Shown: positions 24,186-30,928 of the stretch, piece after piece
Layout: each line of letters begins with the position of its first letter
Numbering within the stretch: the first letter of the stretch is position 1
Source of the DNA: Capsulimonadales bacterium
Lineage (GTDB): Bacteria > Armatimonadota > Armatimonadia > Armatimonadales > Armatimonadaceae
Direction of reading: 5' to 3'
Length of the DNA stretch: 30,928 bases
Assembly (NCBI GenBank): GCA_033762295.1
Contig: JANRLW010000059.1
Location: 1 to 30,928 of the forward strand
The notes under the pieces: model-generated
Databases searched by the model: none
What the model saw: the letters and a program-made list of their open reading frames with translations, nothing else
What the model was told of the DNA's origin: nothing
Made by a program: the position numbers and the translations under genes

Positions 24186-26138
24186 ATGTGCGGACTCGCC
24201 GGTTTCCTCGATCCGTCCGACCGCCGATCCGTCGAGGAGCGCACGACCATTATTGAGAGGATGGCGGGCGTCCTCGCTCACCGCGGCCCGGACGACTCCG
24301 GCCTCTGGCAGGACGTCCGTGCCGGGGTCGCCCTCGGGTTTCGCCGCCTCGCCATCCGCGACCTGTCCCCCGCCGGTCACCAGCCGATGCGGTCCGCCTC
24401 CGGTCGTTTCGTCCTGGTCTTTAACGGCGAGGTCTACAACTCCGAGGAGATTCGCGCGGAGCTTGCGGCGACCGGCCGTTCCCCCTCCTGGCGCGGCACC
24501 TCCGACACCGAGACCATGCTTGCCGCGATCGAAACCTGGGGCCTTTCCGCAGCGGTGGGACGGTTCGTCGGTATGTTCGCACTGGCGGTCCGGGACAACG
24601 AAAGACGGACCCTTTCGCTGGTTCGCGACCGCCTGGGGATCAAACCGCTGTATTACGGGTCCGCCGGTCGTGCCATCGTGTTCGGCTCGGAACTCAAAGC
24701 CCTTTGCGCCCACCCGGACTTCCTGCCGGAGATCGACCCGGTCGCCCTGACCCGGTTCCTCCGGTACGCGTATGTGCCGACGCCGCTGAGTATTTATCGG
24801 AATGCCGCGAAACTTCCCCCCGGCACGATCCTGACCTTTACGGAAAACGACACCGCGTTCTCCCCACGCCCCGTTCCCTACTGGTCCCTGACGGAGACCG
24901 TCAACACCGCCCTCCGTGAGCCGTTCACCGGTTCCGAGGAGGAGGCGACCGACGCCTTTCTGGAACGGGCGCGGCAGGCGGTCCGACTGCGTCTGATCGC
25001 CGATGTTCCCCTCGGCGCGTTTCTCTCCGGCGGCCTCGACTCCTCGCTGGTCGTCGCCCTGATGCAGGAGGCGTCCTCTCGTCCGGTTCGAACTTTCTGC
25101 ATCGGTTTCACGGAGGAGGCGTACAACGAGGCGGACCAGGCGCGAGCGGTGGCCGCGGCATTGGGTACCGACCACACAGAGCGTCTGGCGACGCCGGAAG
25201 AGGCGATGTCGGTCATCCCGCGCCTGCCCGCGATGTACGATGAACCGTTCGCCGACCCCTCGCAAATCCCGACGTTTCTCGTCTCCGAACTGGCGCGGCG
25301 GCAGGTAACGGTGTCGTTGTCCGGTGACGGCGGCGACGAACTGCTGGCGGGTTACAACGCCTACACGCACGGTGAGGAGATCCGGCAGATCGCCCGCCGC
25401 CTCGGCGTCTTCCGTGGGGCGGCGGCCGGGGCGATAAAGACGTTCCCGCCGCAATTCTACCGGCACGTTTTGCGCGGTCGTTACACCGGCGACCGCCTTC
25501 ATAAGCTGGCGGACCTCCTGACGCAGGACCCCCTGGTCCATCACCGACAGCTAATGAGCCACTGGAAGTCTCCGTCCGCCCTGACCGGCGTTCCCGAACC
25601 GGAGGAAGCCTGGCTTTTGCCGGAGGTCGTCCCGCCGCCGCATCGGTCCTGGACCCCGATCGAGGAGGCGATGTTCCGGGACACGCTCACCTACCTTCCG
25701 GACGACATCCTGACCAAGGTGGACCGGGCGAGCATGGCTGTTTCGCTGGAGGCTCGTGTACCGTTACTGGACCACCGGCTGGTGGCCTTTTGCTGGTCGC
25801 TACCGATGTCGTACAAACGTCGGGACGGTCGGACGAAACGGGTACTTCGCCGGGCACTGGAGCGATACCTGCCGCGCGAGCTTTTCGACCGACCGAAACG
25901 GGGTTTCGGAGTGCCGATCGACGACTGGCTTCGTGGGCCGCTTCGTCCCTGGGCGGAGGAGTTGCTCTCGGAAGCCGCGCTTCGGGAAGACGGTTGGCTG
26001 GACCCGAAACCGATCCGCGCCGCCTGGGAGGCTCACCGGACGGGCGTACGAAACTACCCCGGCCCGCTCTGGTGCGTCCTGATGTACCGCGCCTGGCGCG
26101 AATCGGGCGCGTCTACCGCCTGTCGGTCAGAGTATTGA
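24186..26138 (+). CDS. asnB: Asparagine synthase (glutamine-hydrolysing) family amidotransferase
   Basis: N-terminal 'MCGLAG', 'HRGPD', 'FNGEVYN', 'RDRLGIKPLYY', 'FLSGGLDSS', 'LSGDGGDEL', 'KVDRASMAVSLEARVPLLD'. Start ATG at 24186. Confidence 0.95.
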   Translation: MCGLAGFLDPSDRRSVEERTTIIERMAGVLAHRGPDDSGLWQDVRAGVALGFRRLAIRDLSPAGHQPMRSASGRFVLVFNGEVYNSEEIRAELAATGRSPSWRGTSDTETMLAAIETWGLSAAVGRFVGMFALAVRDNERRTLSLVRDRLGIKPLYYGSAGRAIVFGSELKALCAHPDFLPEIDPVALTRFLRYAYVPTPLSIYRNAAKLPPGTILTFTENDTAFSPRPVPYWSLTETVNTALREPFTGSEEEATDAFLERARQAVRLRLIADVPLGAFLSGGLDSSLVVALMQEASSRPVRTFCIGFTEEAYNEADQARAVAAALGTDHTERLATPEEAMSVIPRLPAMYDEPFADPSQIPTFLVSELARRQVTVSLSGDGGDELLAGYNAYTHGEEIRQIARRLGVFRGAAAGAIKTFPPQFYRHVLRGRYTGDRLHKLADLLTQDPLVHHRQLMSHWKSPSALTGVPEPEEAWLLPEVVPPPHRSWTPIEEAMFRDTLTYLPDDILTKVDRASMAVSLEARVPLLDHRLVAFCWSLPMSYKRRDGRTKRVLRRALERYLPRELFDRPKRGFGVPIDDWLRGPLRPWAEELLSEAALREDGWLDPKPIRAAWEAHRTGVRNYPGPLWCVLMYRAWRESGASTACRSEY

Positions 26139-27210
26139 TCAGTTTTCGGGCGTCGAAAATCAGGAAGTTTTTCGGTCCACTGTTCATCGCGACCAGGATT
26201 CCGGCGGGGAACGCGTCGCCCAGCCGTCGCGCGGTTATCTCGATCCCGTCGGTTTCGTCGGCCCCGCCGTTCCAGCGAGCGATCTCGCGGTGGGCGTGCG
26301 GATTGCCCGGTTCCCCTTCGCGCGTGAAGACGCGGTAGACCGATCCGCCGTCCGCCGCCGGGATCTGGTCGGTACAGATCAGATACCCGCTTTTCGGCCC
26401 CGTCGGATAGAGAGCGATTCCTTCATGGTCGCCTTTGAAATCGGCGGTCGCGAATCGGGCCAGCTCGCGGTCGGGGTCCGGTGCGTCGGGGTCGGCGGCG
26501 TACTTTCGGACGCCGACGCCCTCGTCGGAATAGTAGACAAAACCAAGGTCGTCGTCCACGGCGATCGACTCGATCTCCTTCTTTCCGGAGTAGTTGCCGA
26601 ACGCTCGCACCTTTTCTGCCGTGACCTTGCCTTTGCCGTCCTCCCTGAGGCGGTACTGCCAGAGGTAGCCGGTGGTCGGACCGGACTTACGCCCGACAAT
26701 GGCGAAGATGGCGCCGTCTTTCGGGCGTCGATAAAGCGCGACTCCCATCGGGGCGGCGGCATCGCCGGTTTCGCCGCCGAAGACCGGAATACCGTTCGGG
26801 GCGATCTCGGAAAGCGTCCCGTCGTCCGGCCGCAAGGCGAAGAGGCGGATTCGGGACGTGTTCCGCTCGGTGACCACCACAAGGTCGGTTTTTGTTCCGT
26901 TCAGGGAGAACCCGTACTCGATATCGACATTATTGGGTCGGTCGAGTCCGCGAACGATCTGCCGGATGTCGCCTTTCAGATCGAACACATAGAGTGCCCC
27001 ACCTTCGGTGGCGGAAACCTTGTTGGTGCCGACAATCCGGCTTTCGGCGGGGTTTACGGGGTGGACCCAGATCGCCGGATCGTCCGGATCGTTGGCGACG
27101 GGTCGGGTCGCCAGGGCGGGAGTGACGGCCACGGTCGGGGTCCGGGCGACGGAGGGCAGCGCGACGATCAGGGCGAGGGTCAGGAGAGTCAGGCAGGGGG
27201 GACGATGCAT
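26113..27210 (-). CDS. Beta-propeller 3-phytase, secreted
   Basis: Signal peptide, 'DPDDPAIWVHP', 'GTNK', 'RPNNVDI', 'EIESIAVDD', 'YSDE', 'DHEGIALY', 'ETDGIE'. Confidence 0.9.
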   Translation of the reverse strand: MHRPPCLTLLTLALIVALPSVARTPTVAVTPALATRPVANDPDDPAIWVHPVNPAESRIVGTNKVSATEGGALYVFDLKGDIRQIVRGLDRPNNVDIEYGFSLNGTKTDLVVVTERNTSRIRLFALRPDDGTLSEIAPNGIPVFGGETGDAAAPMGVALYRRPKDGAIFAIVGRKSGPTTGYLWQYRLREDGKGKVTAEKVRAFGNYSGKKEIESIAVDDDLGFVYYSDEGVGVRKYAADPDAPDPDRELARFATADFKGDHEGIALYPTGPKSGYLICTDQIPAADGGSVYRVFTREGEPGNPHAHREIARWNGGADETDGIEITARRLGDAFPAGILVAMNSGPKNFLIFDARKLINTLTDRR

Positions 27211-27294: not shown

Positions 27295-28212
27295 TTACGG
27301 CAGACAGGGCTGACCGTTGTCCGGGCGAACGGTGTCATTTGCCGGCTGAGTCCAGGGTCCGCAGTCGTTCGTGGAGTCGCGGGATCCCGGAGGCGTGACC
27401 CAGTTGGCGCGGGTGCCGGAGGAGGAGGTCAGCGTTCCGGTCCAGGCGGCGCGACGCCACTTGGCGTGTCCGTCGACGAACGTGACGTTGAAACCGCCGG
27501 TGTGTCGGACCTGGAGTCCGACCCAGTTGTTCGGGACGCCGACGACATCACGGGAGAGTTCGTCGCCTTCGAGTTCGGACTTGTTGCCTTCGAGGAGCAT
27601 GTAGGAGTCGGCGGGCGCTTCCCATCCGGCGAGGACGGGACCTTCGCCCGGATAGACCTGGTCGCAGAGATGCTCGTTGATGGAGTAGGAGTTGTACCAC
27701 TTGAATACACCGTCGGCATCCTTGATCAGGTTCCAGTTATCCCGGAGCCACTGATCGGCCGCCGCCTCGGAGCCATACGGGGTGAGGAAGTAGTAGCCGT
27801 AGTCATCATCGGCGCCCATGCTCATCTGCTGCGGGTTGCCGGTATCGCTCGGGCAGTTAAAGATGGAGCCGCCCTTCTGCTGAATGTTGCCGGCGCGCTG
27901 CTTGATGTAGGGATAGAAATGGAACATCCAGAAGTCCTTGCCCCAGTCGCCTTCGTTGGGTGCTTCGGGATCGGGGTTCACGCCGGCGTTGGACGGGAAC
28001 CGCTCGTCATAGTCCTGAATGTACATCAGGGCGGCGAGTCCGATCTGCTTCATGTTGGAAAGGCAGGTGATTGCGCGGGCTTTTTCGCGTGCCTGCGCAA
28101 AGACCGGGAACAGGATGGCGGCGAGGATAGCGATGATGGCGATAACGACGAGCAGTTCGATCAGCGTGAACGCTGCCGGGCGGGTCGTTCGGGCGAACGG
28201 ATTTCGGGACAA
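27295..28212 (-). CDS. Prepilin-type N-terminal cleavage/methylation protein, DUF1559/H-X9-DG family
   Basis: '[45 protein letters not shown]', 'QDYDERFP', 'FNCPSD', '[16 protein letters not shown]'. TTG start with SD GGAGG. Confidence 0.92.
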
Positions 28213-28293
28213 GGATTGGCCTCCAGGGTGTGAAAATGCTTCGGGTTATTGAACGGACAGCAGACACGACAAAATCGCTTGCAATAACTCCGA

Positions 28294-28339
28294 ATTATAT
28301 AATCATCGATTGGCGAGAATTTGTTAAGATAAGGTTAAA
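28294..28339 (-). promoter_or_regulatory. Putative Pho-box-like promoter for the prepilin-like/phytase genes
   Basis: Minus strand: TTTAACCT-tat-CTTAACAA-att-CTCGCCAA, then 10 bp, then TATAAT (28299-28294). No recognisable -35. Confidence 0.55.
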
Positions 28340-28782
28340 TTTTTCTTTTTTTTCGAACGAGGGTTGTTTTCGGGAGGGAGTTTCGGCGACCAGGCGGAAC
28401 ATGGTTGGAAATCTCTCCACGCCGGCGTCCGTCGGCTTTTTTTGGCCGATTGTTCGATCCTGACTCGGGTCGCAAACCCGTTCGATCCGGACGCGAGCGT
28501 TTCGTGATTCCGGTGGACCGGCACAATCGTCAGCAGGCGAAAGGAAGGGATTGGCAGCAAGCGACAACGCGATCGATTCTATAGCCTGCATTCGTTACGA
28601 ATGAAAATGTAGCCGTGTTCGCTTCTCGGCTTCATTCATTGAACCATTGTCGGAATTGTTCCGTTAGCGCCATTTGCTTCCTATCGGCTTTATATTTTGT
28701 GCGGCAGGCATTCGAGGGATGGGCAAAACTTTGATGACCGAACTCGCATTTCGGACCGAATCTATCGCCCCGAAGGCGATCT

Positions 28783-29181
28783 TTATTCGCCGACGAAGGA
28801 AATAATGCCCGGTTGCCGTTTTACCATGCCGTGTTCGAAGACCCAACGCCAGATTTGCCCGTCTTCACCGGCCATTCGGATCTCGCTTCCGGGTGCGACA
28901 AAAGGAGCGATACTTTCAAAAATTGAGGATTCGTCGCCGAGCTTCTCCCCGGTAAAGAAGAGTGAGACGATATTTTCTTCGTCATCCAACTCGGGTTCCC
29001 AGCGCACTGCCTTCAACGCCGCGACGAGGTCGGTGGAGGATCGAAATTCGGCGGAATTTAGGAAAGGAAACGTATCCTCCCCTCGGGTCACCACCAGCTT
29101 CTTGATTGCCTCGAAAGCCGCCGCCTGCCGGCTTTTTTCGATGGTTGCCTTCCCCTTCAGCAAGAAAACGACGTATCCCAT
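28783..29181 (-). CDS. Hypothetical protein, putative immunity protein for the upstream toxin fragment
   Basis: Intact 132-aa ORF ('FTGEKLGDE..FESIAPFVAPGSEIRMAGEDGQIWRWVF') starting 12 nt after the stop of the toxin-like fragment. Confidence 0.65.
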   Translation of the reverse strand: MGYVVFLLKGKATIEKSRQAAAFEAIKKLVVTRGEDTFPFLNSAEFRSSTDLVAALKAVRWEPELDDEENIVSLFFTGEKLGDESSIFESIAPFVAPGSEIRMAGEDGQIWRWVFEHGMVKRQPGIISFVGE

Positions 29182-29193
29182 TTGTGCACCAGA

Positions 29194-29330
29194 TTACGGT
29201 TGAATTAGGCCAAGAAGCTCGCGAAGATTGGACGTTCCCAAACCACCTGCCGCTTCGATATCTCTGATCGCGAACTTTCCCAGCTTGGGCGACTACCCGA
29301 TGATGACCTTCCCCGGATCGGGTGTATGAG
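29194..29330 (-). pseudogene. Toxin C-terminal remnant (possibly restriction-endonuclease fold) with an internal stop
   Basis: Manual translation HTPDPGKVIIG*SPKLGKFAIRDIEAAGGLGTSNLRELLGLIQP*. It has no start codon and TAG at 29295-29293. From memory it resembles RHS toxin ends of the 'VIGYxPKL...IExAGG' type. Confidence 0.5.
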
Positions 29331-29650
29331 TTACTGTGTTTTACTGGGCAATAACCTGACACGATGATTGTCTAAATAGTCTAATAATTTCCACATTGGC
29401 ACATAAAGGAGTTCTAAGGGCAACCAAATACCGTAGTATCCTTCGCAACGTTGCCGCACCTCTATGATGTCTACTATATATATGTAATCAAAATCATACT
29501 CATCAATGACGAATGCAGGCAGGTAATCAAGATCACCTACAACAAAAAAACTCAAATAACTGAATGCAACGCGCCGTGATTTGCGGGCTGTTACTCTTAT
29601 CAAAGATAAGAGATGTATATATAGTTATGGCAGTTGAGTATAGTTTCCAT
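29331..29650 (-). pseudogene. AT-rich small ORF, putative orphan immunity gene, apparently frameshifted
   Basis: ATG at 29650 (METILNCHNYI) is 47 nt from the 90-aa frame. Removing one TA from the TATATATA run (29616-29623) joins them into a ~105-aa ORF. Confidence 0.4.
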
Positions 29651-29662
29651 TGTTGAGAGAAT

Positions 29663-29902
29663 TTATAACATTGCGTGGTTGATAAGCCAGTCTATCTGCC
29701 ACATCGCCTCTTGAAAGAAGTCTTCCAGTTCATCTTTTAATACCCAGTAGTCATGACCGTTATTAGACGTGAAGTCCCACGTGTCTGATGTTAGTACCAG
29801 ATAGCCGCCTGTGTTATATACATCATCTTGCACAAGGACGTAAGGCTCTGCTTCACCTTCATTGAGAATGCGCCCTTTTACACCAACAGGAATATTTGTC
29901 AT
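29663..29902 (-). CDS. Small acidic protein, putative cognate immunity protein
   Basis: 79 aa, 'GRIL..G....YVLVQDD..NTGGYLVLTS......DYWV....LEDFFQEAMWQIDWL'. Starts 3 nt after the toxin stop. Confidence 0.7.
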   Translation of the reverse strand: MTNIPVGVKGRILNEGEAEPYVLVQDDVYNTGGYLVLTSDTWDFTSNNGHDYWVLKDELEDFFQEAMWQIDWLINHAML

Positions 29903-29905
29903 AAT

Positions 29906-30308
29906 TCAGTTCACAATCCGGACATGATTATTGACAATTGGCACTCTTCCACCGGGCCGATATACCTCAAAATGAACATGAGGAACACCAGGATCATGGT
30001 TCCCTGTTATCGAATTTGGGTCAATGCGGAATTGTCGTAAACCATCAGCACTCCGGTAAACACCGCTGCCCGCATTACCTATTTCACGGTAGCCCGGTCC
30101 CAAGAACTGCGCTGCACCTTCTAACGCTTCGTTTGCTGTTAAATATGTGCGCTCGTGATATGGCCTCGTCCGGCAAGCGTCTCAGCAATAACGTCGCCAC
30201 AATTGTTGTGAACCCAGATACCGCCGTTCGCTTTGCCGACGAAATAGGTATGGTCACCTTCGACTTAGGTGGTCAGACTGTTCTGTAATCGCCGGGATTT
30301 TCTGTGAA
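29906..30308 (-). pseudogene. Orphan polymorphic toxin tip: pretoxin Hint C-terminus plus putative RNase toxin domain, frameshifted
   Basis: VEGDHTYFVGKANGGIWVHN-NCGDVIAETLAGRGHITSAH (30264 to ~30146), then a one-base frameshift near 30143 into LTANEALEGAAQFLGPGYREIGNAGSGVYRSADGLRQFRIDPNSITGNHDPGVPHVHFE...NNHVRIVN*. Confidence 0.8.
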
Positions 30309-30313
30309 ATGCA

Positions 30314-30562
30314 TCACGCCGACGAAACAAGGGGCCAGGGAAGAATTTCATGATATTCGAACTCCGCTTGATAGTCTGTATCACTCGAACCTATCCATCT
30401 AATTATGTTATCAGCAAGTGTGCCTACACCGTAACGAACATCTTCGTTCTTTAACCAGACGGTATCGCATTCATCGCAAATGTACGAACAAATTTGTATT
30501 TTGCGAATTGTGATGCGATATAGACTTCCTTGACCACAATATGGGCAGGCTTGTTCGCTCAT
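30314..30562 (-). CDS. Small Zn-ribbon (CPxC...CDEC) protein, putative immunity protein
   Basis: 82 aa, 'CPYCGQG...YICDECDTVW'. Starts 2 nt after the stop of the toxin fragment. Confidence 0.7.
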   Translation of the reverse strand: MSEQACPYCGQGSLYRITIRKIQICSYICDECDTVWLKNEDVRYGVGTLADNIIRWIGSSDTDYQAEFEYHEILPWPLVSSA

Positions 30563-30564
30563 TT

Positions 30565-30738
30565 TTATCGGAAAGAAAATGCCGTAATAATGTCACTTGT
30601 CCCCCGACGCACAACTATGCGAAGGTTGGTTTCTCGGTTCGTACCTATAACGCGCCCCATCGGAACGTTGAAGACCTCGTTACCGTTTGGTTGCATCACA
30701 ACGGCTCCGCGCATCCCCCATGCTTCATCACGTGTTCT
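30565..30738 (-). pseudogene. Toxin C-terminal fragment (EndoU/BECR-like RNase end) cut off by IS630
   Basis: Manual translation RTRDEAWGMRGAVVMQPNGNEVFNVPMGRVIGTNRETNLRIVVRRGTSDIITAFSFR*. The end resembles a degenerate 'IITAFP' motif typical of RNase toxin tips. Confidence 0.65.
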
Positions 30739-30928
30739 AAGTAGTTATCCAAAAGAAATGCGGTAGCGTCCTCCCACGTTATCGAGTACCGAGCGAACGC
30801 TCTGGCACAGGAAAGGGAAACTTCGGTAGGCATCCAAACCCAGCCACCGATACTTCACCTGACGCCAGAGCACCTCGATCCTGTTTAACTCAGGACGATA
30901 CGGCGGCAGAAACAACAACCGCAACCCT
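30738..30928 (-). mobile_element. IS630-family insertion sequence, right end (continues beyond the window)
   Basis: The transposase 3' end is followed immediately by CTACT-TA. The TA at 30739-30738 fits the IS630 TA target site. Confidence 0.8.
30745..30927 (-). CDS. IS630-family transposase, C-terminal part (5' outside the window)
   Basis: GLRLLFLPPYRPELNRIEVLWRQVKYRWLGLDAYRSF...VLDNVGGRYRISFG* matches the IS630 'LPPYSPELNPIExxW' motif. Confidence 0.9.
   Translation of the reverse strand, partial: GLRLLFLPPYRPELNRIEVLWRQVKYRWLGLDAYRSFPFLCQSVRSVLDNVGGRYRISFG

Follow-up and report, generated by a model that had tools for sequence, protein, structure and literature searches.

The last 2.7 kb of the window analysed here, which is the entire 30,928-nt contig JANRLW010000059.1 (G000:C59) of a Capsulimonadales bacterium from the phylum Armatimonadota with a genome of 5.16 Mb in 132 contigs, hold a low-GC island at approximately positions 28230-30736. 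We conclude that this island is very probably the tail of an RHS/PT-HINT polymorphic-toxin locus, in the form of an array of orphan (displaced) modules made up of a toxin tip and an immunity gene. Four such cassettes of a toxin tip and a small open reading frame (ORF) lie on the minus strand of the island, and an insertion sequence (IS) of the IS630 type closes both the island and the contig. As assembled, none of the four tips is able to make a working toxin (0/4 intact), while three of the four immunity genes are intact.

This reading is supported by the low GC content of the island, from a 69-nt homology to another Hint-domain end at the 5' edge of the second module, and from the recurrence of the same architecture elsewhere in the genome. 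GC fractions of 500-nt segments between 28001 and 30500 range from 0.41 to 0.53, compared to mostly 0.57-0.70 in the rest of the window. The original prediction, made from the letters of the DNA, was that the tips are C-termini of polymorphic toxins, and the relatives of the tips do end long modular proteins that carry RHS, PT-HINT, PT-TG, ALF or DUF637 domains. The homologies of tips 1-3 and ORF132 given below are much stronger than chance would produce. Its further expectation, that full-length homologues of a tip are followed by a homologue of the same small ORF, is borne out for tips 1, 2 and 3 at the loci counted below.

Layout of the array

The array was laid out by three-frame translation of the minus strand together with direct inspection of the sequence. 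From the IS inwards, its features are as follows.

30737-30928, minus strand: 3' end of the IS630-type IS, with the final 60 transposase codons (30748-30927), the stop codon (30745-30747) and the terminal bases
30565-30735, minus strand: tip 1, 56 codons (30568-30735) and a stop codon (30565-30567), cut at the IS end
30314-30562, minus strand: zinc-ribbon ORF, 82 aa, intact, starting 2 nt past the tip-1 stop
30142-30264, minus strand: end of a PT-HINT domain with linker, approximately 23 Hint residues, in a frame different from that of tip 2
29906-30145, minus strand: tip 2, a complete toxin domain of approximately 79 aa
Within the overlap 30142-30181, minus strand: frame change of one base between the Hint end and tip 2, in a short T run
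29663-29902, minus strand: ORF79, intact, starting 3 nt past the tip-2 stop
29331-29603, minus strand: ORF90, with a TTG start, in a frame open from 29624
29194-29340, minus strand: tip 3, approximately 46 retained residues, with an in-frame TAG at 29293-29295
28783-29181, minus strand: ORF132, intact, starting 12 nt past the tip-3 stop
28664-28732, minus strand: tip 4 (TreTu-type), the last 22 codons (28667-28732) and a stop codon
Approximately 28584-28673, minus strand: TriTu-type immunity stub, overlapping tip 4, which reads 13 codons to a stop and loses similarity approximately 16 codons further on

The order and coordinates of the array as first read needed small corrections only. A Hint end is indeed present, but it starts at 30264 and not at 30308. 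The three cassettes that had been described are all real, but the array holds a fourth, a TreTu/TriTu remnant that had been overlooked. The small ORFs said to start 2-12 nt past each of tips 1-3 were found at distances of 2, 3 and 12 nt. A conserved pre-toxin stub is present in module 2 only; tips 1, 3 and 4 lack one.

Tip 1 and its zinc-ribbon partner

Tip 1 shares 51% identity (per-genome E-value 1.3e-10) with a 169-aa frame on contig C1 of G036, a genome from the same phylum and a different family. This is the sole strong match to tip 1 in a set of 401 genomes of the phylum, in which E<=0.01 was reached in 4 genomes, the window genome counted. The family itself is large: a HMMER search of 1.84 billion representative sequences with the G036 protein as query returned 371 proteins at E<=1e-3, of which 86 reached E<=1e-10. 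Among the 150 matches listed, nearly all have the family domain at the extreme C-terminus, and the proteins are 115-2542 aa long. Pfam domains recognized on 33 relatives that were scanned include RHS repeats (8), PT-HINT (8), PT-TG (3), ALF (2), DUF637 (1) and LysM (1), with 13 relatives showing none. No Pfam family covered the toxin part of any of the 33, and NCBIfam likewise gave no match.

The family alignment shows a conserved His, His, Lys and His in its first half. Of the 140 positions in the family profile (built from alignment A6, the window piece itself included), window tip 1 covers just 83-140 and therefore lacks the half with these four residues, the putative catalytic half; in the part that remains, it has a Ser where the family has a nearly invariant Pro. 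The G036 domain was modelled with a predicted local distance difference test score (pLDDT) of 90.7. At E<=0.001, a Foldseek search of the PDB with this model returned nothing, and a comparison of the homologue with the sequences of solved structures gave no match either. We regard the tip-1 family as an unnamed C-terminal toxin family with a candidate BECR-RNase-like fold. The BECR-fold RNase toxins listed closest to it are the CdiA-CTs of Yersinia kristensenii (5e3e) and NC101 (5i4q), MafB2-CT (8hhj), BrnT and colicin D.

The small ORF that follows tip 1 shares 46% identity with the one located immediately behind the G036 toxin and retains all four Cys residues and the DECDTVW motif. Among 19 metagenome loci with a relative of this ORF, a tip-1-family domain ends just upstream in 10 and does not in 9. 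The protein weakly resembles Lar-type and other zinc ribbons. Judged by its position and conservation, it is a candidate immunity protein for tip 1. The G036 homologue of tip 1 stands in an orphan array too (locus L029, G036:C1:4554691-4557843), in a frame that differs from that of the RHS-core end upstream; also upstream of it are another small tip and an accompanying Cys-rich ORF.

The Hint end, tip 2 and ORF79

The Hint end has a close counterpart at another locus of the same genome. Its 69 nt at 30196-30264 share 88% DNA identity and 96% protein identity with C64:52570-52638, and it gives a weak PT-HINT match over profile positions 117-137. Neither a start codon nor a delivery region precedes tip 2 in this module.

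Strong matches to tip 2 were found in two of the 401 genomes, G139 (58% identity, 1.5e-27), an Armatimonadota bacterium of the same family as the window genome, and G056 (48%, 3e-10); E<=0.01 was reached in 11. The phylum of G139 agrees with the original prediction that the DNA comes from Armatimonadota. A scan of 185,579 species genomes placed the domain at 10 loci in six phyla: Acetobacteraceae (3), Nostoc, Armatimonadota, Chloroflexota, Rhodanobacter, Pirellulaceae, Fimbriimonadaceae and Oligoflexia. It is preceded by a Hint domain at the Nostoc, Chloroflexota, Pirellulaceae and Armatimonadota loci and by an RHS core end at the Rhodanobacter locus. The domain has approximately 80 aa, with a His-x-His-x-Glu strand and further conserved His, Glu and Arg residues, and the window copy retains 13 of 13 family-invariant residues (alignment A4). 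At an Oligoflexia locus from a metagenome-assembled genome (MAG; L050:2713-2964), the tip-2 homologue has an internal stop just past the His-x-His-x-Glu strand.

The structure model of tip 2 reached a pLDDT of 91.5. Foldseek against the PDB returned no match at E<=0.001, and the sequences of solved structures contained no match to a tip-2 homologue. The only structural neighbour of the domain is the CdiA-CT of E. coli A0 34/86 (PDB 5T86), at 15% identity and a Foldseek E-value of just 0.22. This structure is classed as BECR in one preprint (10.64898/2026.05.10.723254) and as a VOC-type metal-binding fold in a published paper (PMC9424270).

A relative of ORF79 directly follows the tip-2 domain at 7 of the 10 loci; of the other three, one is truncated where its contig stops and two carry another ORF in this position. 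ORF79 in the window retains 6 of 6 invariant columns (alignment A5). Prediction of a complex between tip 2 and ORF79 gave a score of 0.32, compared to 0.00 for the best of three controls, which lends weak support to the pairing. Of 157 solved complexes, 116 reached this mark, as against 2 of 215 mismatched pairs; with scores of 0.60 or under, it was reached by just 18 of the 157, together with both mismatches that passed. At least 89% of contacts agreed between runs, with a partner pLDDT of at least 68. ORF79 is thus named here as a candidate immunity protein for tip 2. A Nostoc MAG (L042:3259-3717) carries two tandem genes of the ORF79 family behind one toxin.

Tip 3, ORF132 and ORF90

The retained residues of tip 3 match the end of a 336-aa RHS-core-plus-tip frame in the related genome G079 (39% identity over 46 aa, pairwise E 3e-9), and the in-frame TAG aligns opposite a Tyr of the G079 protein. 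The latter matches Rhs_assc_core at 1.6e-14; a Pfam scan of it gave no match, and its matches among the sequences of solved structures are to the RHS core only. The tip-3 family is rare, with three proteins found in a search of 5.8 billion proteins within the length band searched. Several leads concern its activity. The G079 protein and a second relative, P0152, have a nuclease-like D/E...E-x-K motif-like stretch upstream of the part that is retained in the window, a third relative (P0153) matches CdiA_C (PF18451) at 32.6 bits against a cut-off of 26.6, and the Atlas points the family toward Tox-REase families with scores <0.9. We take these as no more than leads toward a PD-(D/E)xK or Tox-REase type.

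ORF132 shares 43% identity with the ORF directly after the G079 toxin (per-genome E-value 1.6e-21) and retains 17 of 17 invariant columns (alignment A8). G079 is the one locus at which an ORF132 relative is paired with a tip-3-type toxin. For tip 3, ORF132 is our candidate immunity protein. An ORF132-family gene in three further Armatimonadota genomes (L035:1933-2730, L036:21-410 and L037:1890-2699) directly follows a 266-270-aa protein, which starts in a winged-helix-like manner, contains an E-V-E-H stretch and gave no Pfam match. This protein and the ORF132-family gene may form a separate toxin-antitoxin-like pairing.

Between ORF79 and tip 3 lies ORF90, for which the search of 5.8 billion proteins gave no relative and the 401 genomes gave a single weak one (34% identity over 62 aa). 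Possibly it represents an orphan immunity-like gene that has no toxin piece.

A fourth cassette of the TreTu/TriTu type

Tip 4 and its partner share 92% DNA identity with C64:53936-54081, and the tip is 82% identical to the C64 copy at the protein level. The intact C64 ORFs match TreTu_C (PF24691) at 1.1e-29 (103.4 bits) and TriTu (PF24689) at 1.4e-14 (54.2 bits), with a cut-off of 27. Since the window pieces are too short to score alone, we name them through this DNA identity. TreTu is an Rhs ADP-ribosyltransferase of Salmonella that modifies EF-Tu and TriTu is its immunity protein (PMC9825190). The fourth remnant of the window is close to the C64 paralogue of this pair, but it retains only 22 toxin codons and a stop-interrupted immunity stub.

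The IS630-type element and the genome context

Only 192 nt of the IS630-type element lie within the contig. The fragment matches Pfam DDE_3 at 33.4 bits, above the cut-off of 28.6 (E 4.9e-8), and its end is defined in more than one copy, so that we assign it to IS630. A second IS end at C34:61166-61305 is 98.6% identical and has different flanks, which places the IS boundary at 30737. Among the contigs of the genome only C34 shares this IS end. There, the IS630-type copy (C34:60970-61305) appears by eye to sit inside a Mutator/IS256-like transposase frame, giving nested IS elements.

PT-HINT matches occur elsewhere in the genome on contigs C4, C43, C64 and C102. On C4:25077-42171, a frame of 3771 aa is intact and shows 18 RHS-repeat matches as well as a PT-HINT domain; past it lies a low-GC stretch that includes an IS-like gene and a further two Hint-tip modules. 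The 3771-aa frame ends in a tip that looks GIY-YIG-like by eye. A second minus-strand orphan array, with several toxin-like tips and small downstream ORFs, is located at C64:51764-55872 (L003-L005). Besides the intact TreTu_C/TriTu pair, it has a pentapeptide-repeat ORF and a 253-aa frame of PT-HINT plus tip that is followed by a 166-aa ORF, SUKH/SMI1-like by eye.

Two candidates for a connection to the window were tried and rejected. At C65:24102-28531, a frame of the RHS type, at least 1476 aa long, runs off its contig end, and this end resembles a 130-nt remnant on C87 (90% identity) and not C59, so that it was dismissed as the parent gene. The remnant belongs to a low-GC array with which C87:1-5500 starts, and C65 and C87 may be neighbouring contigs. 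C4 was dismissed as the continuation of the window contig, as the IS630-like gene at its end is a different one and lies on the other strand.

On its inner side, the island is flanked by a protein with a prepilin-type N-terminal-methylation motif, recognized by eye (27295-28212, minus strand), and by a 365-aa secreted protein (26113-27210, minus strand). Four related genomes, only about 60% identical, were compared for synteny. None of the four showed a Hint/RHS match or a comparable GC drop beside the orthologue of the 365-aa gene, and in three of them, all of which lack the island, the pilin-like neighbour is adjacent to that orthologue.

Discussion

We infer that the array formed by successive recombination, that the cell expresses the immunity genes of the array and is protected by them, and that selection has retained these genes. 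A new tip-plus-immunity module would recombine at the conserved delivery end, either an RHS core or a Hint domain, and the previous module would be displaced downstream, where it would have no start codon or delivery domain. The three full-length immunity genes most likely continue to shield the cell from neighbours delivering these toxins, with binding as the mode of action. Retention of the immunity genes by selection is plausible.

Several observations weigh against this reading. The parent RHS/Hint gene is not on the window contig, which ends inside the IS at 30928, and no other contig could be linked to it. A six-frame profile search of the assembly for the missing half of tip 1 gave the window piece only. 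A promoter and terminator scan found no enrichment (4 found, 3.4 expected), and relatives of ORF132 also occur away from RHS genes, in one genome beside unrelated genes. The original prediction held that the toxins decay while the immunity genes are kept; the counts stand with it, but in the fourth cassette the toxin and the immunity gene are both broken, and 0/4 against 3/4 are too few to prove selection. Point lesions have a similar density in both gene classes, with 2 in approximately 240 retained toxin codons and at least 1 in approximately 390 immunity codons. The disarming of the toxins is mostly 5' truncation, which is inherent to orphan modules. Finally, the tip-2 frameshift and the tip-3 TAG are lesions of the sequence as assembled, and an assembly error in tip 2 is possible given its full set of invariant residues and the position of its frame change in a short T run.

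Some of these points are shared by the explanation that the whole island is a neutrally decaying relic, whose three ORFs owe their intact state only to short length and recent decay and bring no benefit to the cell. The loss of both genes in the fourth cassette, the lack of a measurable difference in lesion density between toxin and immunity codons, the promoter signal at the expected level and the IS already inserted in the array would all be in keeping with such a relic. The state of the coding sequences argues otherwise: all invariant residues are retained in three unrelated immunity families, whereas tip 1 lacks a nearly invariant Pro and disabling lesions are present in tips 2 and 3. Other bacteria, moreover, are documented to retain orphan immunity genes, among them those related to an Rhs NADase of Serratia (PMC10539506). 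We therefore think a purely neutral relic unlikely. If instead the frameshift and the TAG were sequencing or assembly errors, module 2 would be an intact, silent cassette of Hint end plus toxin, and hence a swappable toxin reserve. The frame change within a T run and the 13 of 13 invariant residues would fit, as would the Hint-end homology to another locus that module 2 retains, and orphan Rhs tips of Salmonella can be re-armed by such recombination (PMC3967940). This explanation applies to module 2 only, however, since tips 1, 3 and 4 are structurally truncated and have no 5' homology block. Relatives in other assemblies are also lesioned, namely the G036 tip-1 homologue, which is frameshifted from its RHS end, and the stop-interrupted tip-2 homologue of Oligoflexia, which suggests that real decay is common. 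On balance, we hold it to be quite improbable.

It has also to be considered that the small ORFs are not immunity proteins at all and are accessory or regulatory genes that travel with the tips. Their immunity role is predicted from sequence and one model, the zinc-ribbon ORF has its faint likeness to Lar-type and other zinc ribbons, and the toxin is absent at 9 of the 19 zinc-ribbon loci and at several ORF132 loci. Against this stand their small size, their position 2-12 nt past the toxin stop and their tight co-occurrence with the toxins across phyla, which together are the defining pattern of immunity genes, and the complex model of tip 2 with ORF79 adds weak support for immunity. An accessory role for all of them appears very improbable to us, and the array of orphan toxin-tip/immunity modules is the reading that we retain.

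Orphan cdiA-CT/cdiI modules of contact-dependent inhibition (CDI) systems, located downstream of full-length CdiA genes, were reportedly described by Poole and colleagues in 2011. In Enterobacteria, orphan rhs-CT/rhsI modules downstream of full-length Rhs genes are reported by Koskiniemi et al. 2014 (PMC3967940). The array shares with these modules the promoter-less, 5'-truncated tips that are each followed by their own immunity gene, the tandem arrangement, the atypical GC content and, in module 2, a pre-toxin stub of the kind that allows recombination with the main gene. It differs in that the pre-toxin part is PT-HINT and not an RHS core alone, each tip is further disabled, the parent gene is off the contig and the host is an uncultured member of the Armatimonadota. 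A second comparison is offered by orphan immunity genes and by the acquired interbacterial defence (AID) clusters of Bacteroidales, which Ross and colleagues are said to have described in 2019. As in those clusters, immunity is kept here in the absence of a working cognate toxin, an arrangement thought to protect against non-kin attackers. Unlike them, the window ORFs still stand behind their own toxin remnants and have no recombinase-associated gene-capture structure, and their protective effect is predicted.

The kind of locus described here is thus already known; what is new is the phylum, together with three unnamed toxin/immunity family pairs. The original prediction that none of the pairs belongs to a named family holds for these three, which have no match in Pfam or NCBIfam, and fails for the fourth cassette, which is TreTu/TriTu. 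Among the new pairs, the zinc-ribbon protein that accompanies a large BECR-like toxin family and the small cross-phylum tip-2 domain are notable. That at least one of the three unnamed cassettes represents a new toxin/immunity mechanism, and not just a new sequence family, is in our view unlikely; the best candidates would be the tip-2 domain and the zinc-ribbon protein, the latter if its inhibition of a BECR-type RNase family defined a new inhibitor class. Two of the three pairs are widespread, and natural intact members have been located.

Orphan tips with surviving immunity genes are a record of past bacterial competition that is well known in Proteobacteria and Bacteroidota. Our analysis extends this pattern to the Armatimonadota, a little-studied phylum that the literature search made here found mentioned together with polymorphic toxins in a single paper, and in which this one genome alone holds several such loci.

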